The notes under the pieces: model-generated | What the model saw: only the letters and a program-made list of their open reading frames with translations | Told to the model about the DNA's origin: nothing | Database searches by the model: none | Shown: positions 4,891-31,072 of the stretch, piece after piece | How positions within the stretch are numbered: the stretch's first letter is position 1 | Layout: each line of letters starts with the position of its first letter | Program-made: the position numbers and the translations under genes | Source: Candidatus Aenigmatarchaeota archaeon | Lineage (GTDB): Archaea > Aenigmatarchaeota > Aenigmatarchaeia > Aenigmatarchaeales > Aenigmatarchaeaceae | Assembly: GCA_011773475.1 (NCBI GenBank) | Contig: WVXN01000047.1 | Location: forward strand, 1,979 to 64,119 | Reading direction: 5' to 3' | Length of the DNA: 62,141 nt

Positions 4891-4963
4891 TTTCTTTTAA
4901 TTATTTTTTACAACTCTTGGTAGTCAGAATCCTATATGCTCTACTCTTTATCATATCTAATTT

Positions 4964-5437
4964 ATGGACGAGAAAATAATTTTCGTTTCACATTGTATAT
5001 TAAATCAAAGTATAAGAAATGAAAAATTCTCTAAAATAAAAGAAGTAGTAAAATTACTTAGTGAGACAGATGTAGGAATAGTTCAATTACCATGTCCGAA
5101 AATAGATTGTAATGGAAAATTTATAAAAAACACAACTAACGTCAAAATTTATAAAAAATATTGTGAAAAAACTTCTGTTATTATTGTAAATACAATTAAA
5201 AAATATCTAGATGCAGATTTTAAAGTTCTCGGGATTCTTGGAGTAGAGTTTTCTCCAATCTGTGGTGTTTATAGAATTAATAATGGTAGAAAGAACATTC
5301 CAGGAAAAGGGGCTTTGATAAAAGAAATTGAAAATGAGATGCAAAAAAGAAATTTTCAGGTTCCAATAATCTCAACCAATCTAAACAATGTTTTTTCAAT
5401 CTTAGAAAAAATCAATATTCTTTTAAAAAATTCGTAG
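4964..5437 (+). CDS. DUF523/TudS-like Cys-rich protein (putative 4Fe-4S), paralogue A
   Basis: VSHCILNQ, QLPCP and SPICG cysteine motifs line up (from memory) with the three Cys ligands of DUF523 proteins. Paralogue at 17462-17968. Confidence 0.55.
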   Translation: MDEKIIFVSHCILNQSIRNEKFSKIKEVVKLLSETDVGIVQLPCPKIDCNGKFIKNTTNVKIYKKYCEKTSVIIVNTIKKYLDADFKVLGILGVEFSPICGVYRINNGRKNIPGKGALIKEIENEMQKRNFQVPIISTNLNNVFSILEKINILLKNS

Positions 5438-5448
5438 GAGGTGTTAAA

Positions 5449-5694
5449 ATGAGTATAAGAGTTAGATCAGGAAGGGGTAAAACAACAGTTGAAACAGATT
5501 ATGGTGGGTCTGAGGTTGATCATTCCATGGTTCACAGAGATAGGGGATTAATAGGTGCTATGAATTCATTTGGAATAAAAGAAGTAAAAAGTTCAAAAAA
5601 TTATTGTGGTGTGAGCTCTTCTCTAAAAGAAGACTTTGACAGACAAATCAAGAAAAAATATGGAAGGACCCAAGGATATTTTAGTCCTCTTTAA
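5449..5694 (+). CDS. Small protein P1 (81 aa), unknown
   Basis: ATG 5 nt after strong SD aggaggtg (5436-5443), 11 nt after the upstream stop. First of a packed five-ORF array. Confidence 0.5.
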   Translation: MSIRVRSGRGKTTVETDYGGSEVDHSMVHRDRGLIGAMNSFGIKEVKSSKNYCGVSSSLKEDFDRQIKKKYGRTQGYFSPL

Positions 5695-5702
5695 GTGATT
5701 TT

Positions 5703-5855
5703 ATGCTAAATAAAAAATCTCCATATTATGTGAAAAGCGAGTTATCTAGGAATTTGTATGGAAATAAAGATTCTACAACATTTGAAAGAAGTCTAAACGT
5801 TGTAGGAAAAGACAAAGATCATGTAAAAAATGCAGCATCAATGTGTGCAAAGTGA
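5703..5855 (+). CDS. Small protein P2 (50 aa; not in ORF track), weak relative of P3/P4
   Basis: MLNKKSPYYVKSELSRNLYGNKDSTTFERSLNVVGKDKDHVKNAASMCAK. Starts 8 nt after the P1 stop and shares the YY-x-K start motif with P3/P4. Confidence 0.4.
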   Translation: MLNKKSPYYVKSELSRNLYGNKDSTTFERSLNVVGKDKDHVKNAASMCAK

Positions 5856-5864
5856 GGTGATTTA

Positions 5865-6062
5865 GTGTCATATTATGGAAAACTTCATAATAAAAGCACA
5901 ATAACAACTAGAAAAGATTATACGAAATTAGAAGGTAGAGGTTCTAGCCGCTCAAATGATAGAGATATTGCAAGGACAATTTCAGAAGGTTTGGCTGATT
6001 CTGTGAATAGAGCAAATCAAATAGCATATGAAGCTCATAAAAGGTCCATGGGTTGGAAATAA
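5865..6062 (+). CDS. Small protein P3 (65 aa), YYGK...GRGS-x2-SND-x2-IAR family
   Basis: GTG start 4 nt after SD gaggtga (5854-5860). About 35% identical to P4 over its full length. Confidence 0.5.
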   Translation: MSYYGKLHNKSTITTRKDYTKLEGRGSSRSNDRDIARTISEGLADSVNRANQIAYEAHKRSMGWK

Positions 6063-6250
6063 TGACTGAATATTATGGTAAGATGAGCGTTACTTCAGTA
6101 TGCACTAATAACAAATACTTCTCAGCTATTCATGGTAGAGGTTCTGCTAAATCAAATGATTTAGGAATAGCAAGAGATCTATCCCATAGACTACCTGATG
6201 TGCTTGATAAGGCTAATTACTATACTTATGATTTACAAAGCAGGAGATAA
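6062..6250 (+). CDS. Small protein P4 (62 aa), paralogue of P3
   Basis: ATG overlaps the P3 stop (taATG at 6060-6064). The track start 6053 is an in-frame TTG. Shares YYGK, GRGS, SND, IAR and AN positions with P3. Confidence 0.5.
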   Translation: MTEYYGKMSVTSVCTNNKYFSAIHGRGSAKSNDLGIARDLSHRLPDVLDKANYYTYDLQSRR

Positions 6251-6251
6251 C

Positions 6252-6512
6252 ATGTACCAATCGAAAATCAGTTCAACAATTGTTATAGACAAAGAAAAAG
6301 GAAGTGTAAAATTAAATCAGTTTGATGTTAAAATTGATGGATATAAGAACAGAGGAAAATTAAGGAAAGCTAGAGATGCTTATAATTCAGATAAGAATCT
6401 AGAAAAAGAATATAAGAACAATGATTGGCCAGCAGGAATTTGGAACTATCTATTTGAAGACTATTTCAAAATATTAGAAAAATGGAAAAAAAGAATTAAC
6501 AAAAAGAAATAG
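6252..6512 (+). CDS. Small basic protein P5 (86 aa), unknown
   Basis: ATG at 6252, 6 nt after aggaga (6242-6247) and 1 nt after the P4 stop. The track start 6198 lies inside P4. Confidence 0.5.
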   Translation: MYQSKISSTIVIDKEKGSVKLNQFDVKIDGYKNRGKLRKARDAYNSDKNLEKEYKNNDWPAGIWNYLFEDYFKILEKWKKRINKKK

Positions 6513-6553: not shown

Positions 6554-7021
6554 TTAGCTGTATGTTCCAGTTATGGTACCTGATGTGCTAAAGTCAGCTG
6601 TTGCTGCGTCTGAGGGATACCTGTAGCTTATGACAGTTGTTGCACTGTAACTTTCCCCTGTGTCTGCACCTGTTATAGGCGTTGGAGCTGATGTGCAAGT
6701 GAATGTATCATCTTCACCTGAAGCTATTTCCAATTCTACAGTTGGTGTGCACGTGTAGTCAGTTGCGTCTATAGTCAAAACAGCCTGCGTTATATTGATT
6801 GCTCCGCCAACTCTGTTAGCTAGGTTTAGAGTTACAACCCCAGCTGTTGAAACAGCCCACGGGTTAAGAACCTGTACTTGTCCAAACCCTCTTGCTGTTG
6901 GGCCCAAGAATCCAGCTGGCGCAAATATTCCATAGTATGCTAGAACTCCAGCTACTATCAAAATTATCAAAATTGCCCATCCATAAGTCATTAGATACTC
7001 AACTGCTGTCTGTCCTTTCAT
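6554..7021 (-). CDS. Archaeal type IV pilin (class III signal peptide), probable major pilin
   Basis: N-terminus MKGQTAVEYLMTYGWAILIILIVAGVLAYY (KG|Q cleavage-type motif plus hydrophobic helix). Thr/Ala/Gly-rich body and GC far above neighbours. Strong SD aggaggt 7 nt upstream. Confidence 0.8.
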   Translation of the reverse strand: MKGQTAVEYLMTYGWAILIILIVAGVLAYYGIFAPAGFLGPTARGFGQVQVLNPWAVSTAGVVTLNLANRVGGAINITQAVLTIDATDYTCTPTVELEIASGEDDTFTCTSAPTPITGADTGESYSATTVISYRYPSDAATADFSTSGTITGTYS

Positions 7022-7075
7022 TTTTAATACCTCCTATTTAATATTTTATTTTGTCAACTTGGTACTTAAAGATTT

Positions 7076-8068
7076 CTATAGAGCAAAAAACCCTCCGAAA
7101 AACATTTTTACAATCATTTGAGATACCATTAACACTGCTATAGAAGCTATGAGCAAGACAGGAATAAGTTTTAATCCATTTTTCTCCTTGCCTGTTTGTA
7201 TCAGAGCTATTGAAAGAGAGCCAAAGAAAGCTGTTACTGATATTGCTGATATTGCAAACCAGAACAGATCATCTACACCAATTTGAGGTCCGCCAGCTTT
7301 TTGGAACATGCCTCCCATTCCCATTGATGTTCCTGTCACTTCTGCACCAAAACTCGCCGAACCCCAAAGTTCTGTCATAGTCTCAACAAAGAAAAGACTT
7401 ATTGAAAATAAAAAAGGAGCTGCAATTACAGCAGCAAAAACTATGAATATAGAATAAGTCATTACTGATGATTTTATCTCTTTTTTAAGAGTTTGAGTAA
7501 CTCTTATATTGTTTGCAGTCTCCTCTAATAAGTGAGCTATTTCTCCACCAGATGCTATTCCTTCTAATAATAATTTTACTGTCCTGTTTAGTATTTTCGA
7601 TTTAATGTTTTTTGTCATTTCAGTAAGCGCTACTTTTAATGGCTTTCCTCCCATTGTTCTTGCTCCAACTTTTTTAATTTCTTCTTCAAGAACTCCAAAT
7701 TCGGGTCTCGCAGCAAGCCATATTGCTCTATCAATAGTCATCCCAGCTCTAACATTTGCTGACATTAATTGCAAAGCATCTGGTAAAACTGTTTCAATTT
7801 GATTAGCCCTGGAATCTGCAATAAACATGAAAATTAAATAAGTAAAAATTATAACACCAAAACCCAAACCCAAACCAAATAAAAATCCCATGAGTTCAAA
7901 ACCAAGTAAGAAGAAAATAAAAGAAAAATTAAGAGCTAACAATATTGATAAGAAAAAGGAGATTCCTACAATTCTATTTGTAGAAGCTTCTTTTACTCCA
8001 GCATATCTTATCTGCTTTTTAAAAAAATCCCTATATCTTTTTGGGGTCAAATAGTAAATATCTTTCAA
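7076..8068 (-). CDS. Pilus platform membrane protein, T2SS-F domain (TadC/FlaJ-like half)
   Basis: Two N-terminal TM helices, a soluble helical domain, then C-terminal TM helices. Follows the TadB-like gene and ATPase directly. Confidence 0.72.
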   Translation of the reverse strand: MKDIYYLTPKRYRDFFKKQIRYAGVKEASTNRIVGISFFLSILLALNFSFIFFLLGFELMGFLFGLGLGFGVIIFTYLIFMFIADSRANQIETVLPDALQLMSANVRAGMTIDRAIWLAARPEFGVLEEEIKKVGARTMGGKPLKVALTEMTKNIKSKILNRTVKLLLEGIASGGEIAHLLEETANNIRVTQTLKKEIKSSVMTYSIFIVFAAVIAAPFLFSISLFFVETMTELWGSASFGAEVTGTSMGMGGMFQKAGGPQIGVDDLFWFAISAISVTAFFGSLSIALIQTGKEKNGLKLIPVLLIASIAVLMVSQMIVKMFFGGFFAL

Positions 8069-8944
8069 TCATCTCACCATTAAAGGTCTTTTTGTTTTTA
8101 TCATTCCCATAAAAAAATATTGAAAAACTGCTAAACCAAGAACTATTAAAGGAAATATTAGTTTTGGAATTTGGAGCCCTGCAAAAGAAGATAAAATAAT
8201 TAAAAATGTTATTCCCAATGTTGGCATGATTATTGCAATTAACATGTAAATTAATGTGTAGGGGCTTAATTCTTGGCCGTATTTTCTTATTGCTATTATT
8301 TGTTCTTGTGTTAAATTATGAACAATTGCTTCAAGGGCATTACCAATATCACTGCCCGCCTTAATCGAATTTGTTAATTGCCACAAAGTTCTTCTAAAGT
8401 ATAAAGAAGGATTTCTTCTAGATGCTTCTTCTAAAGCTTTTATTTCAGATTTTCCAGCATTTATCTCTTTAACTACTTTTTTAAATTCTTCGCTTATTTC
8501 TCCATAACCTGTGCTTATGCTTATCATTGAATTAAAAAGTGGAACACCTGATTTAATTTCTATTAACATATGTTGTAAAGAATTTAACAGATCAGATTCC
8601 AGGACTTTCATTCTTCTGCTAGCAACAAGTCTCGGATATTGTATTAAATAAAAGAAAACGAAAAGAGAAAAAACACCACCAACCGCAAAAGGCAAGAAAA
8701 AATCTACTTTACCAGCAATAAAACCTATCCAAAAAACCAGTGGTGTCAATATTATAAAATAAAAAATAGTTGTTAATACAATCAAAGATGCATACTCTCT
8801 AGGTCTTAGTCCAATTTTAGCCTGATAAAGATTTAGTTTCAAAGAAGGAAAGGATCTACATATAATATCTCCAAATTTCGAAAAATGTGCCACTGCTTCT
8901 TTTGATGCTTTTTTAAGTGGAAAGGGAACAAAAGGAATTATCAT
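8069..8944 (-). CDS. Pilus platform membrane protein, T2SS-F domain (TadB/FlaJ-like half)
   Basis: Same architecture as 7076-8068. Abuts neighbours with 0-1 nt gaps. Confidence 0.72.
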   Translation of the reverse strand: MIIPFVPFPLKKASKEAVAHFSKFGDIICRSFPSLKLNLYQAKIGLRPREYASLIVLTTIFYFIILTPLVFWIGFIAGKVDFFLPFAVGGVFSLFVFFYLIQYPRLVASRRMKVLESDLLNSLQHMLIEIKSGVPLFNSMISISTGYGEISEEFKKVVKEINAGKSEIKALEEASRRNPSLYFRRTLWQLTNSIKAGSDIGNALEAIVHNLTQEQIIAIRKYGQELSPYTLIYMLIAIIMPTLGITFLIILSSFAGLQIPKLIFPLIVLGLAVFQYFFMGMIKTKRPLMVR

Positions 8945-8945
8945 T

Positions 8946-10496
8946 TTAAACAGCTTTTTCGAGCTCTTTCATTAAACTTGCATCAAGGACTTCTTGTGCT
9001 TTACCTTTTTTATTAACTATTTTTAATATTTTTTCTTTATCATGATAATAATCAGCAACAACTTTTCCTACAGTGTTTACAGTATTTATTCCGTTTTCTA
9101 ACATCCATTGTAAAACAGTTTCTTTCTCCTTTAAGTCTTTTTCCATTTCATCGTCTGTCATTCCTGTGTGCATTCTTATCTCATCTATCAGCCTTATACT
9201 GTCTCTAACTTTTATTATCTTATCAGTTTGAGGTTTCCACCTATACAATGTTTCTAATCTTGCTTTTGCCTCACCTCTTGCACCTCCTGGAAGTAATTCT
9301 GCTACTTGTAAGGTTCTTCTTATTCCTCTTCTTCTGTGTCTAAATTGAACTATAACTAAATGTAAGGATTCTAACAAAGATTCTGGTAGATTAATAGGCG
9401 GGTTAGTTAGTCTTCTTATTACTTGCTCAGCAGTATCAGCGTGTAAAGTTGCATAAACACTATGACCAGTGTGCATTGCCTCAAATAAAACTTCAGCTTC
9501 TGCTTGTCTTCTTATCTCCCCTACAACAACTCTATCAGGTCTCATTCTCAATGAATTAACTAATAAATCTAACATTGATATTTCTCCTTTTCCTTCTGGG
9601 TTTGGTTCTCTTGTTGTTAAAGGGATCCAATGCAAGAAATCCGGAAGTCTCAACTCTCTTGTGTCTTCTATTGAAATTATTCTATGACTTACTGGTACGA
9701 ATGGCATTAAAGAATTTAATACTGAAGTTTTTCCTGAAGCAGTTCCACCAGCAACTAATATGTTCAATTCATATTGCATACACAACCATAATAGTGCAGA
9801 TATTTCCATAGAAAGTGTTTTATTACTAGGATGAATAAAATGTATCATTGTCCAAGGTTCCCTCCTAAATTTTCTTATCGTTATAGTATTTCCTTTTGTT
9901 GATATTGGAAACAGAGTAGCATTAACTCTATCTCCAGTTATTAAGTGAGCGTCCATCAAAGGACTTAAATTAGTTATTTCTCTTCCAACTTTTCTTCCAA
10001 TTAAGCTCGCATAATTATATATTTGTTCTTCTGAGGGAATTATTATGTTTGTTTTTAACCATCCATACTTTTTATGAAATACCCAAGCACATTCAGTAGA
10101 ATTGTTTATAACCAGTTCTTCTAAGTCATCATCATTTAATACAACTTCAAGTCTTCCCAAGCCAAGCATCTCGTGAACCAGATATCCGGCTAATATGTTT
10201 TTCTCTTCATCTGGAACCTTCGGCATTTCTTTACCAATAGTTTCAAGAGCGCTCGCTAAAAATCTTTTCTTAATGCCTTCCATAGCTTTAGGATCTAAAA
10301 TTTCACTTACCTCTATTTTTACAACTTCTATTAATTTTTCTTTTATAGAATCTAATATAGCTCTTGTTGCAGGTTCTACTGCTGGAAACTTCACTTCATA
10401 AACAGGAGTATATTCTTCAGGTCTTTTTATAATACTAACTCTTCCAGGTACTTTATCTGATTCTATCTGATAAGTATCAATTGTTTCCTTTACCAT
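8946..10496 (-). CDS. Type II/IV secretion ATPase (FlaI/PilB/VirB11 family)
   Basis: Walker A GGTASGKTS, Asp box IEDTREL, Walker B RPDRVVVGEIR, His box GHSVYATLHA. Confidence 0.92.
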   Translation of the reverse strand: MVKETIDTYQIESDKVPGRVSIIKRPEEYTPVYEVKFPAVEPATRAILDSIKEKLIEVVKIEVSEILDPKAMEGIKKRFLASALETIGKEMPKVPDEEKNILAGYLVHEMLGLGRLEVVLNDDDLEELVINNSTECAWVFHKKYGWLKTNIIIPSEEQIYNYASLIGRKVGREITNLSPLMDAHLITGDRVNATLFPISTKGNTITIRKFRREPWTMIHFIHPSNKTLSMEISALLWLCMQYELNILVAGGTASGKTSVLNSLMPFVPVSHRIISIEDTRELRLPDFLHWIPLTTREPNPEGKGEISMLDLLVNSLRMRPDRVVVGEIRRQAEAEVLFEAMHTGHSVYATLHADTAEQVIRRLTNPPINLPESLLESLHLVIVQFRHRRRGIRRTLQVAELLPGGARGEAKARLETLYRWKPQTDKIIKVRDSIRLIDEIRMHTGMTDDEMEKDLKEKETVLQWMLENGINTVNTVGKVVADYYHDKEKILKIVNKKGKAQEVLDASLMKELEKAV

Positions 10497-10500
10497 TCTT

Positions 10501-11340
10501 TCACCAAAAATCCTTATAAATATTTGACTTTTTCTTGGCTTTAATTTTCTTATTTTTTACTTTTTGTTCTATCTTAGAAATTTTTTTGTCTATTTTTTTA
10601 TGTTTCTTTTTAATTTTCTCTGTTTTTTTCTCATGTCTTCCAAACAGTCTTCTCAATGGGTTTACAGTATGTATTTTTTTACCTTTTAAAACTAGCTTTG
10701 TTAATTTAATTTCTGCGTCCAGATTTTCTATATCGTTTCTTATTTCTTCTCTCATCTCTTCTAGATTTTTTATTTGCTCTCCATGTGCTTCTATAAATTC
10801 AATTTTTTCATTTATTTTTTTGTCAATTGATTCTACACTCGATTTTAAATCATCAAAGTTTTTTACTATTTCTTCAGCTACTTTTTCTATTTCCTTTGTA
10901 TCCTTAATTACTTCCCGTTTTTTACTTTCTAAGGATTCTAAAATTTTAAGGTTTTTTTCCACACCTTCTAATTTTTTACGTAATTCTTTTTCTAATTTAG
11001 ATACTTTCTTGTCTGTTACTTCTACTTTCTTTTCAGTTTCAGTTATTTTTTTCTCAAAAAGTTTTGACTTTTTTTCAATCTTTTTTCTTTCCTTTTCAAT
11101 TTTTTTAGTTATTTTTCCACTTTTAATTTTTTTGAGAATTATAATAGGTTCCCCAATTGCTGGATATCTCATTTCTACAAAATCACGCTCTTCTAGAATT
11201 CTAACCCATTGTTCTATTTGAGTCCGTGTAACTCCAAGAGATTCGGATGCTTCACTAATACTTATCTTCTCCCTCTCTTTAATTAATTTTATAAGTTTAT
11301 CAATTGGAGTTTCTATAATCATTTCTTTTAATTCAGTCAT
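10501..11340 (-). CDS. Winged-helix N-terminal domain plus long Lys/Glu coiled-coil protein
   Basis: N-terminal ISISEASESLGVTRTQIEQWVRILEERDFVE (HTH-like), then ~200 aa of KE-rich heptad-like sequence. 4 nt upstream of the ATPase gene. Confidence 0.6.
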   Translation of the reverse strand: MTELKEMIIETPIDKLIKLIKEREKISISEASESLGVTRTQIEQWVRILEERDFVEMRYPAIGEPIIILKKIKSGKITKKIEKERKKIEKKSKLFEKKITETEKKVEVTDKKVSKLEKELRKKLEGVEKNLKILESLESKKREVIKDTKEIEKVAEEIVKNFDDLKSSVESIDKKINEKIEFIEAHGEQIKNLEEMREEIRNDIENLDAEIKLTKLVLKGKKIHTVNPLRRLFGRHEKKTEKIKKKHKKIDKKISKIEQKVKNKKIKAKKKSNIYKDFW

Positions 11341-11358
11341 TTAATTCCCCTATTCAAA

Positions 11359-12585
11359 TTATAGTTCATTAACACCATATATAGTTTCATGATTTGAGTC
11401 TATCTTAAACCAATCAAATACAGGATCATAATCACCATTTCTTATTGAACTTCCTCCAGTCATATTCCAATACATATAATCAACACAACTTAAATTGTAA
11501 TATACTACTATATCTGCATCAGATATAGCTGGTAAGTAAACAAATGATTCCAAGCCATAATTGTATTTACCTGAGAGTTTTAACCTACCTTCTAATCTAT
11601 CTAAAAAACTTGCTCCGTCAATAGAAGGTTTATAATAGCCATTCCGCATGGCTAAAGTTAGGTTTTGTAAATCCCAAACCTTTTTTGTTTGTGCATCTAA
11701 ATATATTCTTGTTTCATTTTCAATTATTGTTACAGCATTTGTTGCTCCTGATATTATAGCTTGTCCTGTAAAAGTTTCGGGAATTGCTGTATCGCCTTCA
11801 GATACGACTCCTGCAAACGAGGAAGCTATAGCTTCTTTACCTACTATAGTATCTGTTACAAGTACTCTGCTAGAATTGATATCGACTGCTTGTAAATCTG
11901 CGTTTAGCTTAACAAAAGCATAACCACTGTTAGAACCAGATGAATTAGAACCCCCAACTAAATTTTTACTATAATCACTGAAATTATAATATCTTATTAC
12001 TTTGAATACCCTACCTAATGTATTCAACGGGAACAAAGGATCTTCTATGCCATCTATAGAGACAATAGACTTTGCAGTTATATTTCTTAAAATACCCATT
12101 TTTGCGTTCTCATCTGAAATATTTACCAAAACTTTAATTTCAAACAAAATGTTAAAACTACTGTTTTGTGTCACATTGGTTTCTGTAATCTTTAATGATA
12201 GATCAAAACCCGAATTACTTGCTATATCACTCACATTTTTTTCCCATCTCTTTAAATTGTCTTTATCGACAAGCGGAGAATAATTTCCTTTTAAAGTTCC
12301 ATTTTCTATTAACTCTCTTAATCTTAGTTGTGCATCATCAAGGGGAGTTCCACTGATTGTAATATTCGATACTGCTGATATCAAAGCTCTTTTTCCTACT
12401 ATTTCCATGAATCTTTGTAAATCAGTTTCAATACTGTCTACAAAATATTTGAGCTCGTGAGCTCTGATGCTAATATCAATATTTTTCTGTCCTATTTGAG
12501 AATGGAAAAATATGATACCGAATATTGGAACAATAATCAAAGCAGCCATTATACTATAAAGCAAACCTCTCATATCTACACCCAC
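11359..12585 (-). CDS. Pilin-like protein with class-III-type N-terminus (408 aa)
   Basis: MRGLLYSIMAALIIVPIFGIIF start, Asn/Ser/Thr-rich body with many N-x-S/T sequons. Start overlaps the upstream gene by 10 nt. Confidence 0.6.
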   Translation of the reverse strand: MGVDMRGLLYSIMAALIIVPIFGIIFFHSQIGQKNIDISIRAHELKYFVDSIETDLQRFMEIVGKRALISAVSNITISGTPLDDAQLRLRELIENGTLKGNYSPLVDKDNLKRWEKNVSDIASNSGFDLSLKITETNVTQNSSFNILFEIKVLVNISDENAKMGILRNITAKSIVSIDGIEDPLFPLNTLGRVFKVIRYYNFSDYSKNLVGGSNSSGSNSGYAFVKLNADLQAVDINSSRVLVTDTIVGKEAIASSFAGVVSEGDTAIPETFTGQAIISGATNAVTIIENETRIYLDAQTKKVWDLQNLTLAMRNGYYKPSIDGASFLDRLEGRLKLSGKYNYGLESFVYLPAISDADIVVYYNLSCVDYMYWNMTGGSSIRNGDYDPVFDWFKIDSNHETIYGVNEL

Positions 12586-14465
12586 GTTCTAACTCTTGCG
12601 CTAAATGGTCCCCACATATAAGGAACACCGGAAACTCTAACAGCATCCACGACCATTTCCATAGCTGAAATGTCATCACCCAATATATCCTCCAATCTTA
12701 TTACAGCATCATCAATAGCGTCAGTTTCATTTTCAAATGTTTCACCGTAACCTACAGATGCAGGTACTAAAAATGTAACGTCTCCAAAAGAGTCTCCCGG
12801 ATTAATAGAATATCCATCACTAAAATTAAGTTCAAATTTATTATCACCGCTAATCATAACACCTTCTGGGTTAGTGTCATAACCGAATCTAGCAAATGCC
12901 TTAATAAAAGGATCACTTGATGCATTGCTTGGATCATGATTATAAACTGTAATGTCATTTGCTCTTGCAAGCTGTAAAGGATCATATCCATCCCAGTGGC
13001 CCCATGGGTATTGCCATCTAGCCATCAAAGGAATTTTGCTTGTTAAGTTAAAGTCCCATCTTATATACCTATAAAATTCTGAAACACCAAAGTTGGGATC
13101 AACATCTTCGGCAATATAATCTTCAAGTACTCTTGTCATGTCAATGTAATTATATATTGCTCCTATGTCAATAAGTTGAGAATAATTCAAAGCAATGTAA
13201 GAATCTTCACCAACTATTTTCCTCTCGTAGCTTATTGGTTCATTCTCATGGTAAGGATCAATCTCAAAAATAAACCAGAAAAATCTACCAGTTAACATGT
13301 TATATGAAATTCCATTAGAATTTAAAACATTTTTTATTTCTGTGTCATTCCAGTCAACTGTTCCATTCGTAACATTCTTTATATTTATATCATAAGTCTC
13401 TCCGTTCCACATAAATTTCGCTGTCACATTTTTTACTTCTGTTTCATTTGTAAGATTAATATGAATACTCATGTTATAAATCTCACCAACAGTAAATATC
13501 GGTTTTCTATATTCTATAGATGCTTCTGAAATTGTATTTTGAAGATATTGTCTTCCGAAGTCCACCAATGTTGTCAATTGGGAAGTATTGTATACTATAA
13601 CTAAATGTGTTGCTCCATCATCGCCAGCAGTCGGTTCACTAGCATATTTTCTATACGATATATGGCCTATATTATGTCCTGGTTGTAGTAGATGTATATA
13701 ATCTCCTGATTCTAATTTTGTATTTCCTATTGCCCCTTCACATCCAGGTATGTTTTCACCATTCATGTAACAACTAAATTTATTTATTATCCCCCAAGTT
13801 GCTTCTATGAACCAATAAGTATCTAGAATAGTAGCATCTTCTGGTATATCTGCAATATAACTTACATTTATTTTATTTTGAGCACTCTCGACACTGCTAG
13901 TTATAATATCACCCATTACAACAAGTGTATTATTTTTACTTATTTTTCTAGCTATAGCTCTTGCAACATAACCTTCCGTAGACTTACCTCTTTCATAACC
14001 TGAAACAATCCTCCCAGAAGAAATCTCTATTGTTGAATTTTCATAACTTGGTCTTACTGTATCTGAAGAATTATAAATGGGGTCATTGTTTATTAGGAAT
14101 TCATAACCAATGTTACTTGGAACAAAATCATCTAAAATATCTTTTGTCAAATTTGCTGCTTCAGATATATTTCCAGATGACCATAAAGCACCTATAACAT
14201 CTATTGTTTTTTCATCTAAATCGGTCTGATTTAAAATACCGTCCGTTATATATTGATTTAAAAGAGTTTGATTATCAACAACATCTCTAAGCTTAGAGTT
14301 AGAAAGGACTGTTAATATATCTTCTGATATGAAATGTAGTTGTTGTGAAGCCAAGAGTGGTGATGCTACTTTGGTTCTAAAGAAAATTAATCCACTTATT
14401 ACTCCTATTATTATACCAAGAGCTATCAGAGCATCTATAGTGAAGACAATAGCTTTCATATCCAA
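12576..14465 (-). CDS. Large pilin-like / putative tip or adhesin protein (629 aa)
   Basis: MDMKAIVFTIDALIALGIIIGVISG N-terminus, no further TM, many N-x-S/T sequons. Translationally coupled on both sides. Confidence 0.6.
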   Translation of the reverse strand: MDMKAIVFTIDALIALGIIIGVISGLIFFRTKVASPLLASQQLHFISEDILTVLSNSKLRDVVDNQTLLNQYITDGILNQTDLDEKTIDVIGALWSSGNISEAANLTKDILDDFVPSNIGYEFLINNDPIYNSSDTVRPSYENSTIEISSGRIVSGYERGKSTEGYVARAIARKISKNNTLVVMGDIITSSVESAQNKINVSYIADIPEDATILDTYWFIEATWGIINKFSCYMNGENIPGCEGAIGNTKLESGDYIHLLQPGHNIGHISYRKYASEPTAGDDGATHLVIVYNTSQLTTLVDFGRQYLQNTISEASIEYRKPIFTVGEIYNMSIHINLTNETEVKNVTAKFMWNGETYDINIKNVTNGTVDWNDTEIKNVLNSNGISYNMLTGRFFWFIFEIDPYHENEPISYERKIVGEDSYIALNYSQLIDIGAIYNYIDMTRVLEDYIAEDVDPNFGVSEFYRYIRWDFNLTSKIPLMARWQYPWGHWDGYDPLQLARANDITVYNHDPSNASSDPFIKAFARFGYDTNPEGVMISGDNKFELNFSDGYSINPGDSFGDVTFLVPASVGYGETFENETDAIDDAVIRLEDILGDDISAMEMVVDAVRVSGVPYMWGPFSARVRTWV

Positions 14466-14944
14466 ACACCAACGTTTAAAATAGCTTTTGTTGTATTACC
14501 ATTAAAATCAACTAAACATAGTCTTTTTACATAGAAAACTTGACTAGAACTTTCATCTTCTTCAATACCATAACTATAGCCGTCTATAATATCATCTGTC
14601 TTATTTCTAATATCAATATAAATTTCATAACCTCCAACACCCATTATCCTCTTTGCAGTATAATATTCAATTTTTTGAAGTTCTTCAAATTTAGTTAAGT
14701 TTATCAGACCATCACTAAAAAATCCTATAACTTTTACACTATCATTATTCCAGTATTCTGGAAATCCGGTGCTTGTTACTAGAACATCTGCTATACTATT
14801 AACTTTGGCCTGTATGTCATCACGTATTTTATAATCGTTTATTTCTGCATGTAGACTACCATAAAATACTTCAAATATAACTAATCCTATTAAAAATAAG
14901 GATAATCCTAAAACAAAATCTGAAGAGAATATTTCAGCTTTCAA
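14456..14944 (-). CDS. Minor pilin-like protein (162 aa)
   Basis: MKAEIFSSDFVLGLSLFLIGLVIF class-III-like N-terminus. 10-11 nt overlaps with neighbours. Confidence 0.6.
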   Translation of the reverse strand: MKAEIFSSDFVLGLSLFLIGLVIFEVFYGSLHAEINDYKIRDDIQAKVNSIADVLVTSTGFPEYWNNDSVKVIGFFSDGLINLTKFEELQKIEYYTAKRIMGVGGYEIYIDIRNKTDDIIDGYSYGIEEDESSSQVFYVKRLCLVDFNGNTTKAILNVGVWI

Positions 14945-15344
14945 TTAATACCAACCCCTCGTCATTCTTTATTTTTATTTTAATTAATCCCGGTTCCACT
15001 GTTCCACTAACCCTTTCTGTAATTATGTTAGCTATAGCTTTTTTGTCATCCCATTTAACTTCAACAAATCTAAAATCAGTATTAATAGAAACATTATATT
15101 CTATGTTATTTACAAGTTTTTTAGGTATTGAAAATTCTCTATAGTATCCTTCCATACTTGCTGCAAAATTAATTTCATTTGCTATTAAATTAGCCATGTT
15201 TTGCGCTTCTGAAAAGATAATTGATTCTGATACATCATTATATCTTAAACCAACTATAATTAAAACAGAAATAAAAACAATTAGTATAAAGCCAACTAAA
15301 CTAATGAATTCCGAAGAAACCTCAGACTTCCGTAATGTTAACAT
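14934..15344 (-). CDS. Minor pilin-like protein (136 aa)
   Basis: RKS|EVSSEFISLVGFILIVF N-terminus. Overlapping starts and stops. Confidence 0.6.
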   Translation of the reverse strand: MLTLRKSEVSSEFISLVGFILIVFISVLIIVGLRYNDVSESIIFSEAQNMANLIANEINFAASMEGYYREFSIPKKLVNNIEYNVSINTDFRFVEVKWDDKKAIANIITERVSGTVEPGLIKIKIKNDEGLVLIES

Positions 15345-15729
15345 AATTATCCTCAGCTTTTATCTTTACTCTCTTTATTCCTTGCGTATTTGATATAGAA
15401 CCTTGTAAATCTGCTTTTGATGTTGCAAAAATATCAGTTATGCCACCAGCTACTCTGACTTTCATTAAAACAGTTTTGCCATTAATAGTTATTGATTCCA
15501 CTCCTTCAGGAATATAAACTGATGTTAGTGTAAGCGAGGTAGGTTTTCCTTGTGTGTTTACTATGTTTGCAGTGTCTACTATTTCATGTGACGCAGCTAT
15601 AGCGTTTGATATTCTTATTTCTTCTTTATTCCTTTCTGTAATCTGTAATGCATATGCTACTAAAACTAATACTAATGCTATGACTATTGAAAAAATCATT
15701 AAATATTCAAAAGCAGCTTGGCTCTTCAT
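15322..15729 (-). CDS. Archaeal type IV pilin-like protein (135 aa), first gene of the pilus operon
   Basis: MKSQAAFEYLMIFSIVIALVLVLV closely resembles the N-terminus of the 6554-7021 pilin. Confidence 0.7.
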   Translation of the reverse strand: MKSQAAFEYLMIFSIVIALVLVLVAYALQITERNKEEIRISNAIAASHEIVDTANIVNTQGKPTSLTLTSVYIPEGVESITINGKTVLMKVRVAGGITDIFATSKADLQGSISNTQGIKRVKIKAEDNYVNITEV

Positions 15730-15792: not shown

Positions 15793-17460
15793 ATGATTTT
15801 TATGCAAAATCCTTGGTTAGACTTAAAACAAGAAATAGCAAAACAACTAGACATAGGTATAGAAGAAATAGAAGAACCAGAAAAATATGGAGATTTTGCT
15901 TATCCTTGCTTTTCTTTATCAAAAAAATTAAAAAAAGATCCTAAAGAAATTGCCAAAGAATTAGCTAAAAAACTAAAAATAAAACATATTGAAAAAATAG
16001 AAGCCATAGGACCTTATGTAAATTTTTATATTGTTTGGAAAAAGTTTGGTCAAGATTTATTAAAATCTGTAAATGAAAAATATGGAGGTTTTATAGTAAA
16101 AGATAAGAAAGCTTTAATTGAACATACTAGCATAAATCCCAATGCTTCTCCTCATGTTGGTAGAGCAAGAAATGCTATTATTGGGGACTCTTTAGTTAGA
16201 TTAATTAAATTCCTAGGTTATGAAACAGAAGTTCACTATCTTGTTAATGATGTTGGAAAACAAATATCTGTTTTAGTTTATGGTGTTATGAATAAAGACA
16301 CTAAAGATCTGAAATTTGAGGACTTGTTGAAAATATATATTGAAACAAGTAAAAAGGTAAGCGAAAATCCTGAGGATGAGAAAAAGGTTTTTGAAATTCT
16401 TTCAAAATTTGAAAAAGGAGATAAAAAAACCATGAATTTGTTTAAAAAAATAGTTTCTTTGTGTATCAATGGTCAGGAAGAAATATTATCTAAACTGGGT
16501 ATAAAATATGATTTTTTCGATTATGAGAGTGACTATATTATTAATAAAAAAACTAATGAAGCTTTAGAAAAACTTGAAAAAACAGATAGAATTTTTACAG
16601 ACGAAAATGGTAGAAAGGTTCTTGATTTAAAAGGTTTTGATATACCCATGGAGTCTCCAGCTTTTGTTTTATTAAGATCAGATGGAACAAGTTTGTATAA
16701 TCTAAAAGATATAGCGTACACTATAGACAAAATTAATAAAGCAAAGGATCTTAACATTGTTGTTCTGGGAGAAGATCATAAACTTTATTTTAAACAATTG
16801 TCAGCAGCATTAAGAATTTTAAAATATGAACCACCAAAAGTTATTCACTATGCTTTTGTTTTGTTGCCATCAGGAAAAATGAGCACAAGAAAAGGAGAAC
16901 TGGTTTTATTAACAGATTTTATTAATGAAGCTTGTGAAAAAGCTTTAAAAGAAATTGAAAAAAGATATCCAGAACTATCTAAAGAAGAAAAAGAAACAAG
17001 AGCAAAAAAAGTTGCTGTTGGGGCTATTAGATATAGTATAGTAAAAATTAGCCCTGAAAAAAATGTTATGTTTGTTTGGGATGAAGCTTTAAGATTCGAT
17101 GGTAACACAGGTCCTTATCTTCAATATACATATGCAAGATCAAATTCTATATTAAAAAAAGCTAAGCTAAAAGACTTTGATGTAAAATATCTAAAAGATG
17201 AAAGAGAAAAAAAAATATTAAAATCATTAGCTAAATATCCACAGATTTTAGAAAAGTCTTTGAATGAATTGAAACCTCACTACATAGCAAATTATTTATA
17301 TGAACTAGCAGATGTATTCAACTCTTTTTACCAATCATTACCAGTTTTAAATTCTGAGGAGAATTTAAAGAACGCTAGATTAAAACTTGTGGATTCAGTA
17401 AAAAATGTTTTAGAAACTGGTTTAGAATTGCTAGGCATACCGACTTTAGAGAAAATGTGA
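15793..17460 (+). CDS. argS: Arginyl-tRNA synthetase
   Basis: HIGH-region variant NPNASPHVGRARN, KMSK-type motif GKMSTRKG, C-terminal anticodon-binding (DALR-like) region. 555 aa. Confidence 0.9.
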   Translation: MIFMQNPWLDLKQEIAKQLDIGIEEIEEPEKYGDFAYPCFSLSKKLKKDPKEIAKELAKKLKIKHIEKIEAIGPYVNFYIVWKKFGQDLLKSVNEKYGGFIVKDKKALIEHTSINPNASPHVGRARNAIIGDSLVRLIKFLGYETEVHYLVNDVGKQISVLVYGVMNKDTKDLKFEDLLKIYIETSKKVSENPEDEKKVFEILSKFEKGDKKTMNLFKKIVSLCINGQEEILSKLGIKYDFFDYESDYIINKKTNEALEKLEKTDRIFTDENGRKVLDLKGFDIPMESPAFVLLRSDGTSLYNLKDIAYTIDKINKAKDLNIVVLGEDHKLYFKQLSAALRILKYEPPKVIHYAFVLLPSGKMSTRKGELVLLTDFINEACEKALKEIEKRYPELSKEEKETRAKKVAVGAIRYSIVKISPEKNVMFVWDEALRFDGNTGPYLQYTYARSNSILKKAKLKDFDVKYLKDEREKKILKSLAKYPQILEKSLNELKPHYIANYLYELADVFNSFYQSLPVLNSEENLKNARLKLVDSVKNVLETGLELLGIPTLEKM

Positions 17461-18246: not shown

Positions 18247-18939
18247 GTGAAAAAAATGCTTAGGAAAGATGATACGCATAATTTTTTGAATGCATTACAA
18301 ATGAGAGTATTAAATGATGCTCCAATAATGATTAAACATTTAGATAGTCGTCGTTTTTGGGATTCCAGTTTTGAGGTAACCAAATTTTATGAAAAATCTG
18401 AATTTACACCCTACTTAGATCAAAGAATAGAAAATTTAAAAGAAAAACGATATGGTAGAAGAGATTTCATATCAATTACTGGCGATGGGGATGCATGGTC
18501 AGTTGGTAACGATAAAAGACTTGCTATGTATAGGGAGTTAGTAGAATCAGGTGTTGATATAAAAATTATGATGACAGAAATAGGAGCTTGGACAATAGGT
18601 GAAAAATCTAGTGCTAGAAGACTACATGATATAGGTGTTCATGTTAGGCGTGTAGAAGCTTCTCGTGAATATCATTCTGGAGTTATAGGCGGAGAAGAAA
18701 TGTATACTATTCATAGATTTCCCGTTGAAGGTGCTAGCAAAGTTCTTGGTAAACCTCAAAAAAGAGGTAAAGTTAATTACACTTTTGTAGCTACAAACCA
18801 TCCCCAATTCGTTAAGCATGCTCAACGAGAGCTTAAATGCCTTTGGAAAAACCAATCTGTTAATTATGATGAGGTTTTGAAGGAAGAGCAAGAAAATATG
18901 AGAGCAAGAGAAGATCTCTTAAGATTAGAAACGCCTTAA
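18247..18939 (+). CDS. Hypothetical protein resembling the C-terminal (effector) domain of TrmB-like regulators, no HTH
   Basis: 230 aa with no N-terminal wHTH. Loose similarity by eye to the C-terminal halves of 18936-19748 and 26194-26961. The 3' end overlaps the convergent gene by 4 nt. Confidence 0.45.
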   Translation: MKKMLRKDDTHNFLNALQMRVLNDAPIMIKHLDSRRFWDSSFEVTKFYEKSEFTPYLDQRIENLKEKRYGRRDFISITGDGDAWSVGNDKRLAMYRELVESGVDIKIMMTEIGAWTIGEKSSARRLHDIGVHVRRVEASREYHSGVIGGEEMYTIHRFPVEGASKVLGKPQKRGKVNYTFVATNHPQFVKHAQRELKCLWKNQSVNYDEVLKEEQENMRAREDLLRLETP

Positions 18940-19748
18940 CTTAATTTCTTCCACCAATAATCAAAGTTTTCTTTTAATGCAATTGCAATTGCGGGATTTT
19001 CGATTATAATTAATTCATATCTTCTATTGATGTCTGATTTAGGCAATCCTTCTTCTGCTATGTTAGTTCCTTTTTCTGAAAGTTTAAGTGCTAAAGATGC
19101 AATTTTTTTATCAACTATATAACCTCTCAAAGTTCCACTATAACCAGTTTTAATCTCTATTCCTAATTTTTTAGCTTTATTTATGTTTTTTAAAAATTCT
19201 TTAGAATCATTCAATTCTTTTGCTAAGATTTTTATTTCAACTCCTCTTTTTTTAGCATTTTTTATTGAATTTATAGTTTCTGGTAACCATGATATATCTC
19301 CAGCAAAACTTAATACCTGCTTTTTAGCTGAGATTAGTTGTTCATTTAAAGCTTCAACAACATTTCTTCTTCTGTCAGTGGACCATATCTCTCCTTTTTT
19401 TCTAATTGTTAAAGGTTCTATTTTTGAGAGGATTTCAGATATTGTTTCAATGTTATTTTTCAATTTTTTTATTTTTTTATCAAATTCATTCTTTCTTGAT
19501 TCAATTAAATTATTTAGAGCTTTTTTAGGAGAGATGATTTTAAATCTCTTGGGTCTACCTCTATTTATTAAAACAAATCCTTTTTTTTGTAGTTCAGTTA
19601 GAGTATCATAAACTCTTGGTAAAGGTATTTTTCCAGCTTCTGATAATTGTTCTGCTGTTGCTATGTTGAGTTTTGATAGTGTTAAGAATGCTCTAATCTC
19701 ATATTCAGTCAATTCAAATTCTCTTAAGAGGTTCCCAACTTTTTCCAT
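18936..19748 (-). CDS. TrmB-family transcriptional regulator
   Basis: N-terminal LTEYEIRAFLTLSKLNIATAEQLSEAGKIPLPRVYDTLTELQKKGFV wHTH, coiled linker, C-terminal domain. Confidence 0.75.
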   Translation of the reverse strand: MEKVGNLLREFELTEYEIRAFLTLSKLNIATAEQLSEAGKIPLPRVYDTLTELQKKGFVLINRGRPKRFKIISPKKALNNLIESRKNEFDKKIKKLKNNIETISEILSKIEPLTIRKKGEIWSTDRRRNVVEALNEQLISAKKQVLSFAGDISWLPETINSIKNAKKRGVEIKILAKELNDSKEFLKNINKAKKLGIEIKTGYSGTLRGYIVDKKIASLALKLSEKGTNIAEEGLPKSDINRRYELIIIENPAIAIALKENFDYWWKKLS

Positions 19749-29674: not shown

Positions 29675-29693
29675 TTACCACCTTTGGTGGTAA
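29675..29693. promoter_or_regulatory. TATA-proximal palindrome TTACCACC-ttt-GGTGGTAA (putative operator or RNA hairpin), copy 1
   Basis: 8-bp perfect inverted repeat starting 6 nt after TATA-like tttaaat (29663-29669), followed by caaa. A second copy lies at 31054-31072. Confidence 0.5.
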
Positions 29694-31053: not shown

Positions 31054-31072
31054 TTACCACTGAGGGTGGTAA
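31054..31072. promoter_or_regulatory. TATA-proximal palindrome TTACCAC-tgagg-GTGGTAA, copy 2
   Basis: 7-bp inverted repeat starting 5 nt after tataaat (31043-31049), followed by caaaa. Same layout as 29675-29693. Confidence 0.5.

Follow-up and report, generated by a model that had tools for sequence, protein, structure and literature searches.

Background

Several families of small proteins that combine β-strands with α-helices and tend to occur as paralogues have been described. COMM-domain proteins (COMMD1-10 and prokaryotic COMMD-like proteins) are small paralogous modules of β-strands and a C-terminal helix that are stable only as obligate hetero- or homo-oligomers. YegP/DUF1508 (PF07411) and dodecin (PF07311) are β/α microproteins of about 60 amino acids (aa) that are often tandemly duplicated, dodecin having the topology β-α-β-β, and the chromatin protein Sul7d (PF02294) has a conserved basic surface and an SH3-like sheet of five strands followed by a C-terminal helix. 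Here, an array of five tiny genes, P1 to P5, is compared with these families. It lies in a stretch of 62,141 nucleotides (nt), referred to as the window, of contig WVXN01000047.1 from a metagenome-assembled genome (MAG) of a Candidatus Aenigmatarchaeota archaeon (GCA_011773475.1; ~1.0 Mb, 81% complete). P1-P5 are interpreted as the subunits of a single soluble complex, a hetero-oligomer of five different proteins, a reading to which a probability of roughly 0.5 is given.

Two further described systems concern the surroundings of the array. The gene directly upstream resembles those of TudS and RudS, desulfidases of thiouracil and 4-thiouridine (DUF523). For the promoter, the closest parallel is the Thermococcales glycolytic motif (TGM), TATCAC-N5-GTGATA, which is bound by TrmBL1; this regulator activates if bound upstream of the transcription factor B recognition element (BRE) and TATA box and represses if bound downstream of them (PMC4706686). 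New in this work are structure models for P3 and P5, tests of charge and of a chromatin role, the dating of a gene duplication, and a conserved TGM-like promoter.

Conservation and distribution of the array

Their conservation, which goes far beyond chance, shows that P1-P5 are genuine protein-coding genes and that all five belong to one operon. By tblastn and inspection of open reading frames (ORFs), their order and orientation are kept in at least 12 genera of the families f1 and f4 and in one outlier genome, G273 (five-gene order seen in loci L003-L009, L018, L022, L024, L025, L041-L048 and L053). The carriers in f4 include a lineage with a GC content of 48-51%. All five genes are called by independent annotation pipelines, with a Pfam domain in none of them. 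The ratio of nonsynonymous to synonymous substitution rates (dN/dS, Nei-Gojobori) against close relatives is 0.23-0.31 for P1, 0.19-0.22 for P2, 0.14-0.16 for P3, 0.05-0.06 for P4 and 0.27-0.28 for P5, compared with 0.14 for a neighbouring enzyme gene. By this measure, purifying selection acts on all five genes, and P4, with a ratio of ~0.05, is the most constrained member. The P1 orthologue of one genome (G009, L006 ~1150-1290) is a run of N and was left out of the comparisons.

The initial annotation, made by eye from the window, had described a tightly coupled small-protein module of five ORFs of 81, 50, 65, 62 and 86 aa. The coordinates match exactly (window 5449-6512), as do the gaps from the TudS-like gene through P5 (11, 8, 9, -1 and +1 nt), and the same order of the five genes in diverged genomes bears out the module. 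Related genomes contain homologues that evolve under purifying selection, and none of the profile searches placed them in a known family.

Translational coupling is predicted for the array, and start/stop overlaps and Shine-Dalgarno (SD) sites recur across the loci. The three SD strings quoted in the initial annotation are all present, namely aggaggtg, which overlaps the stop of the TudS-like gene, gaggtga (5854-5860), which overlaps the stop of P2, and aggaga (6242-6247). The conserved C-terminus of P2, '(E/D)VM(P)', is encoded by the SD site of P3 (GAGGTGATG). Near the end of P2, the window carries one extra base compared with close relatives (5840-5867): P2 ends in ...SMCAK where the relatives have ...SYVQSEVM, and the start codon of P3 is GTG rather than ATG. 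The SD sequence GAGGTGA is kept. This difference of +1 nt could be real variation or an error in the MAG consensus. Because the SD site is kept while the end of P2 has changed, the constraint at this junction appears to act on the ribosome-binding site and not on the peptide.

The taxonomic distribution of the operon is narrow. Among 371 genomes of the class, it was found in 10 of 20 genomes of f1, in both genomes of f4, and in one genome of f38, the outlier; the other families gave no matches except for one weak single match (G260). By genus, the operon was found in g1-g6, g8, g9 and g12 as well as in f4, and it was not found in g7, g10 or g11. Genus g11 (four genomes, 81-91% complete) and genus g7 keep the flanking Yip1 gene, and the module is missing behind it. 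Since these sister genera lack the module, the operon is lineage-specific and dispensable. Judged by this distribution, it is limited to a subset of Aenigmatarchaeota and inherited vertically as an indivisible unit. A profile built from 53 P3/P4 sequences and searched with HMMER against 1.84 billion representative proteins returned 43 matches, all of 55-71 aa, and in this exhaustive search a fusion to another domain was found in 0 of the 43.

The operon is single-copy in the genome studied here (G000). A relative, G002, carries two copies of the whole operon on its contigs C3 and C27 (L010, L012). The copy on C27, an 8.8-kb contig with a coverage of 7 versus 24, is essentially identical to the operon of G003, and this points to a bin of mixed origin, not to a duplication.

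This pattern of inheritance bears on the suggestion of the initial annotation that the array might be a toxin-antitoxin-type module. A small-protein toxin-antitoxin, addiction or anti-virus defence module would fit small, tightly coupled genes without an assigned role that are missing from some close relatives. It is nevertheless very improbable, as the array comprises five genes rather than two or three, is single-copy, syntenic and vertically inherited, and keeps a constant neighbourhood (Sec61beta-DUF7847-Yip1 ... ArgRS) across genera with strong purifying selection on all members. PADLOC, PHROGs, Pfam and NCBIfam gave no matches, and mobile-element genes were not found nearby. Neither a match to a type II toxin-antitoxin model nor the patchy, mobile and multi-copy distribution in variable contexts of such systems was observed.

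Predicted structures and comparison with known families

AlphaFold2 models were built as single chains for P3, from an alignment of 53 sequences, and for P5, from 20 sequences. The model of P3 (predicted local distance difference test, pLDDT, 93.5; predicted template modelling score, pTM, 0.72) consists of a β-hairpin (residues 5-15 and 20-30) followed by one 29-residue helix (33-61), with the invariant SND as the helix N-cap. In the model of P5 (pLDDT 87.5, pTM 0.74), the hairpin spans residues 4-13 and 18-28 and the first helix residues 34-45; a second, long helix at the C-terminus (61-84) is rich in Trp and ends in a basic tail. The high-confidence prediction for P3, for P4 by homology, and for P5 is therefore a common core, in which a long β-hairpin at the N-terminus precedes an α-helix. 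A crude profile of hydrophobic periodicity agrees with both models and indicates that P1 and P2, too, begin with a segment of β periodicity, which is weak evidence that all five proteins share a hairpin-first design.

At the sequence level, the paralogy of P3 and P4 proposed in the initial annotation is clear, with 41% identity over 58 residues (E 2e-15). G24, S30, N31 and D32 are invariant in 53 family members, and the conserved YYGK strand shows conservation on both of its faces. No genome has its P3 and P4 paired in a maximum-likelihood tree. The backbone of this tree is poorly resolved because the proteins are so short. The P3/P4 labels on it require 2 changes versus 8.4 for shuffled labels, with 0 of 500 shuffles as low, and the tandem duplication is therefore placed before the split of f1 and f4. 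P2 had been regarded as a shortened third copy. It is indeed in register with the P3/P4 hairpin, although the relationship is weak (hhalign E 0.002, probability 13%). With hhalign, P1 and P5 could be related by sequence neither to P3/P4 nor to one another.

The initial annotation could not place these proteins in any known family, and neither could the database searches. Scans of all five proteins against Pfam, NCBIfam, PHROGs and PADLOC gave nothing above noise, and PDB profile searches with the alignments of P1, P2, P3/4 and P5 returned chance matches only (designed helical repeats, AroH chorismate mutase and PI31). Foldseek found nothing significant, with best E-values of 0.57 for P3 against PDB, 0.08 for P3 against BFVD and 1.3 for P5 against PDB. 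A literature search found no description of the proteins. As far as the searched libraries show, the families and the fold of P1-P5 appear to be undescribed.

The described families mentioned above were compared individually. The top Foldseek match of P3 is the COMM domain of Commd9 (E 0.57, probability 0.16, template modelling score, TM, 0.35), and a bacterial COMMD-like octamer is among the matches of P5 (E 7.1, TM 0.35 or lower), both insignificant. The models have two long strands instead of three, and P1-P5 lack the N-terminal helical domain of COMMD proteins. Membership in the COMM domain family (PF07258) was rejected, as there was no Pfam match and no significant Foldseek match; the likeness may be one of function by analogy, not of homology. 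The P3/P4 string ...S..D..IA..V..AN is superficially similar to YegP, but YegP/DUF1508 was rejected since an hmmscan of P1-P5 at E-values up to 10 gave no match. Dodecin was rejected for want of a Pfam match and because the AlphaFold2 topology is β-β-α.

The comparison with Sul7d is linked to the question of whether P1-P5 could be nucleoid or chromatin proteins, analogous to Sul7d, Cren7 or Alba. All five proteins are basic in this genome (isoelectric point, pI, 9.2-10.0), and the string GRGSSRSND in the array recalls the hairpin-to-helix junction of Sul7d, GRGAVSEKD. The basic charge is not conserved in the orthologues, however, and histones and Alba are present in 20 and 17 of 21 family genomes, respectively, irrespective of the presence of the operon. 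For these reasons, chromatin and generic nucleic-acid-binding roles are disfavoured. Moreover, no match to the Pfam family 7kD_DNA_binding was obtained at E-values up to 10, no Sul7d chain was among the PDB profile and Foldseek matches, and the P3 model has two strands instead of five. Sul7d was rejected on these grounds, and a role in chromatin is hardly credible. P1-P5 could be assigned to none of the families compared.

Promoter and candidate regulon

Upstream of the operon, directly after the terminator region of Yip1, lies an imperfect palindrome (Table 1). The orthologous loci carry better copies of it, with 1-2 mismatches to TTACCAC-N5-GTGGTAA. In 7 loci, it ends exactly 37 nt before the ATG of the TudS-like gene, and a TATA box of the TCTATAT type lies in between, 25 nt from the ATG; such a box with equal 25-nt spacing is found in the window, L010, L011, L048, L006 and L024. 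The predicted promoter thus consists of the conserved palindrome, the TATA box and a fixed 25-nt spacer. Where the TudS-like gene is absent (3 loci), the palindrome-TATA unit lies 48-59 nt before P1, leaving an SD-bearing leader of 11-22 nt.

Because the TATA box is only 25 nt away from the first ATG, a leaderless transcript is implied. The initial annotation had contrasted the SD sites of the array with the mostly leaderless genes around it. The SD sites are real, but the contrast is what operon-internal genes behind a leaderless first gene predict, and it is explained by a leaderless first gene with SD-bearing downstream genes and short P1 leaders.

The consensus is enriched in the genome, where two perfect copies lie inside the mevalonate operon (window 29675-29693 and 31054-31072). 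With one mismatch, 2 sites were found versus 0.1 expected, and with two mismatches 8 versus 2.5, which amounts to 12 sites at 0-2 mismatches compared to ~2.6 expected. Other good sites precede cbf5, a 36-aa ORF, and the gene next to LigT that encodes an OB-fold membrane protein. The sites outside the window are located at C22:26233, C30:39375 and C24:315 (copies at C56:986 and C31:1448). Based on one genome and the orthologous promoters, these three genes, TudS/P1-P5 and the mevalonate operon, with two promoters inside it, may form a small candidate regulon marked by the palindrome next to TATA boxes.

The palindrome resembles the TGM of TrmBL1/Tgr in being a hexamer-N5-hexamer palindrome, and its left half TTTACCAC fits the chromatin immunoprecipitation sequencing motif T[TG][TC]A[TC]CAC. 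In the operon, the palindrome lies directly upstream of BRE/TATA, which corresponds to the activating geometry, and a TrmB-family gene is located nearby (Table 1), which also adjoins the block in L047. An inverted repeat at a fixed distance from BRE/TATA and a TrmB-family regulator in the genome are thus both present. In contrast to the TrmBL1 system, the phylum is a different one, the half-site is one base off (ACCAC vs ATCAC), the targets are not those of sugar metabolism, and the operator is predicted. By analogy, the expression of the operon is probably controlled by a TrmB-family regulator at the palindrome.

Two side observations were made at palindrome sites. Three near-identical blocks of LigT, a small ORF, the OB-fold membrane protein, a 79-aa ORF and a MarR-like winged helix-turn-helix protein occur in the genome (C22:25331-27147, C56 and C31). 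Two of the three copies lie on contigs of ~2.4 kb, and they probably represent strain heterogeneity in the bin, not a true triplication. In addition, a conserved tiny ORF (MKI[MV]FEN...FLE[ML]CK...) is located beside the palindrome in L056 (C24 of this genome, 369-479) and on the minus strand in L006 (402-551); in one of these two contexts, the ORF and the TudS promoter of genus g6 point away from each other.

Proposed interpretation as a hetero-oligomeric complex

The interpretation of P1-P5 as subunits of one complex is favoured because of their invariable co-occurrence, fixed order, translational coupling, hairpin-helix design, the conservation of both hairpin faces, and their mixed charge. 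In other lineages, the set comprises acidic, neutral and basic proteins: P1-P4 are acidic or neutral, with P1 acidic in most lineages, and only P5 is basic. Such a mix would be expected of partners rather than of generic polyanion binders. A hydrophobic segment was found in 0 of the 5 proteins (grand average of hydropathy -0.7 to -1.2), in line with the absence of signal peptides and transmembrane helices noted in the initial annotation.

In the proposed mechanism, a TrmB-family regulator would bind the palindrome just upstream of BRE/TATA, the arrangement that activates in the TrmBL1 system. Translational coupling, with SD sites inside the preceding gene and stop/start overlaps, would yield near-equal amounts of the five soluble microproteins. 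Their β-hairpins would pair edge-to-edge, with the helices packed on one face, to form one cytoplasmic hetero-oligomeric complex. P4 would be its most constrained core subunit, and the basic, Trp-rich C-terminal helix of P5 could dock the complex onto a partner, either RNA, a membrane or a protein.

A more detailed version of this interpretation is possible but tentative. P1-P5 may be anciently diverged copies of one hairpin-helix module in a defined hetero-oligomer whose helices would wrap a sheet or barrel of ten strands and which would be switched on by a metabolite-sensing regulator of the TrmB type together with the mevalonate, Cbf5 and OB-fold genes.

Several observations weigh against these readings. 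Except for the weak P2 signal, hhalign finds no homology among P1, P2, P5 and P3/P4. The monomer model of P5 is compact (pTM 0.74), so this protein could be stable alone. The palindrome in the window has three mismatches, which is chance level within one genome, and its reality rests on conservation across genomes. The assignment of the regulator, finally, is one by analogy.

Gene layout and genomic neighbourhood

The features of the operon and its regulator are listed in Table 1. The initial annotation had pointed out that two of the ORFs were missed or mis-started in the ORF track. The fault is real and in fact affects three genes, since P4 and P5 are mis-started and P2 falls below the 60-aa cut-off. 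The longest-ORF rule places the start of P4 at 6053 (TTG) and that of P5 at 6198 (ATG), whereas the starts at 6062 and 6252 are backed by the N-termini of the orthologues. Standard ORF tracks therefore mis-start or miss 3 of the 5 genes of the array.

Table 1. Features of the P1-P5 operon, its predicted promoter and the candidate regulator gene (window positions)
Feature	Position	Strand	Remarks
Imperfect palindrome TTACAAC-N5-GTAGTCA, 19 nt	4908-4926		degenerate TTACCAC-N5-GTGGTAA; candidate TGM-like (TrmB-type) operator
TATA-like box tcctatatg	4930-4938	+	25 nt before the TudS ATG
TudS-related (DUF523) gene	4964-5437	+	facultative first gene of the transcription unit
P1, 81 aa	5449-5694	+	conserved E15, D17, H25, M38; SD aggaggtg at 5436-5443
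P2, 50 aa	5703-5855	+	conserved S6, Y9, S12, G35; C-terminus shortened by +1 nt vs relatives
P3, 65 aa, GTG start	5865-6062	+	predicted β-hairpin and helix
P4, 62 aa	6062-6250	+	P3 paralogue; start overlaps P3 stop by 1 nt
P5, 86 aa	6252-6512	+	predicted β-hairpin, helix, Trp-rich C-terminal helix with basic tail
TrmB-family regulator gene	18939-19748	-	full regulator with PF01978 (E 7.4e-17) and PF11495

The gene upstream of P1 matches NCBIfam NF045597 ('CD3072 family TudS-related') with an E-value of 1.7e-27 and 96 bits, below the curated cut-off of 130, and Pfam PF04463 weakly (17.7 bits vs a cut-off of 34.7). The likeness to TudS/RudS concerns this neighbour and not P1-P5. The gene precedes P1 in five genera, is missing upstream of P1 in L041, L042, L045 and L046, and persists without P1-P5 in genus g11. 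The initial annotation had proposed a search for co-occurrence with such genes; judged by its distribution, the gene is not an obligate partner but a passenger that may or may not head the transcription unit. In G019, a genome of g11, which lacks P1-P5, an unrelated ORF of 67 aa whose hydrophobic C-terminus is rich in Ala comes after the palindrome-TATA-TudS unit (L050, 3177-3380). This ORF may have replaced the module or be left over from it.

The gene order conserved around the operon in f1 is Sec61beta - DUF7847 - Yip1 - [TudS-like] - P1-P5 - ... - ArgRS - TudS-like(-) - TrmB-like. In the window, a type IV pilus locus of 9 kb on the minus strand (6554-15729) is convergent on P5 and precedes ArgRS (15793-17460). 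In L041, L042, L045 and L047, it is replaced by other genes or directly by ArgRS. The pilus block is an apparent insertion into, or loss from, an older P5-ArgRS junction. A functional link between the operon and the pilus locus was rejected because of the convergent orientation of the locus and its replacement by other genes in several genomes.

The pilus locus, which is adjacent in many genomes, the lifestyle of DPANN archaea, and the position of the module between two giant surface proteins in G273 could also suggest exported peptides, that is, precursors of bacteriocins or of ribosomally synthesised and post-translationally modified peptides, or host-directed effector microproteins of a symbiont. 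This is hardly to be expected given a conserved block that lacks signal peptides, leader/core architecture, Cys patterns, modifying enzymes and transporters, and proteins that are confidently predicted to be folded over their full length, as in the P3 and P5 models. The pilus locus itself, as described above, is convergent and missing from the neighbourhood of four loci.

The remaining neighbours raise the question of whether P1-P5, complexed or not, are RNA-directed factors, such as helpers of tRNA or rRNA binding or modification, or lineage-specific ribosome-associated proteins. In f1 and f4, ArgRS is found downstream of the operon in the same orientation, and in L045 and L047 it comes immediately after P5. 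A gene for a putative TudS-related thio-nucleobase or thiouridine desulfidase is often first in the unit or nearby. The palindrome also precedes cbf5 and the OB-fold ('tRNA_anti-codon' domain) gene beside LigT, but it likewise precedes genes of the mevalonate pathway, so that the regulon has no single theme. The basic tail of P5 is kept in most lineages, and P3 in this genome has a Y-K-H-K stripe on one face of the hairpin, as inferred from strand alternation, whereas most other lineages have acidic or neutral versions of P1-P4. Furthermore, no match to an RNA-binding family or fold was found in Pfam, NCBIfam and Foldseek searches, and sister genera keep ArgRS, TudS and Yip1 without the operon. 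Taken together, an RNA-directed role is a reasonable alternative, less likely than the complex but more likely than the other alternatives considered.

Conclusions

DPANN archaea have genomes of ~1 Mb in which every retained gene is costly. Despite the small size of the genome, five orphan microprotein genes are kept here as an unbreakable unit under strong selection. Their confidently predicted fold has no match in PDB or BFVD and, with ~350 residues in total, they would be a compact and tractable system for a new hetero-oligomeric assembly. The conserved candidate palindromic operator offers an entry point to the control of transcription in a phylum without cultivated members and would tie the operon to a small regulon. 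If P1-P5 do form one hetero-oligomeric complex under TrmB-type control, they would represent an unseen kind of Aenigmatarchaeota-specific microprotein machine, for example an RNA- or membrane-docking adaptor for a particular nutritional or host-contact state.

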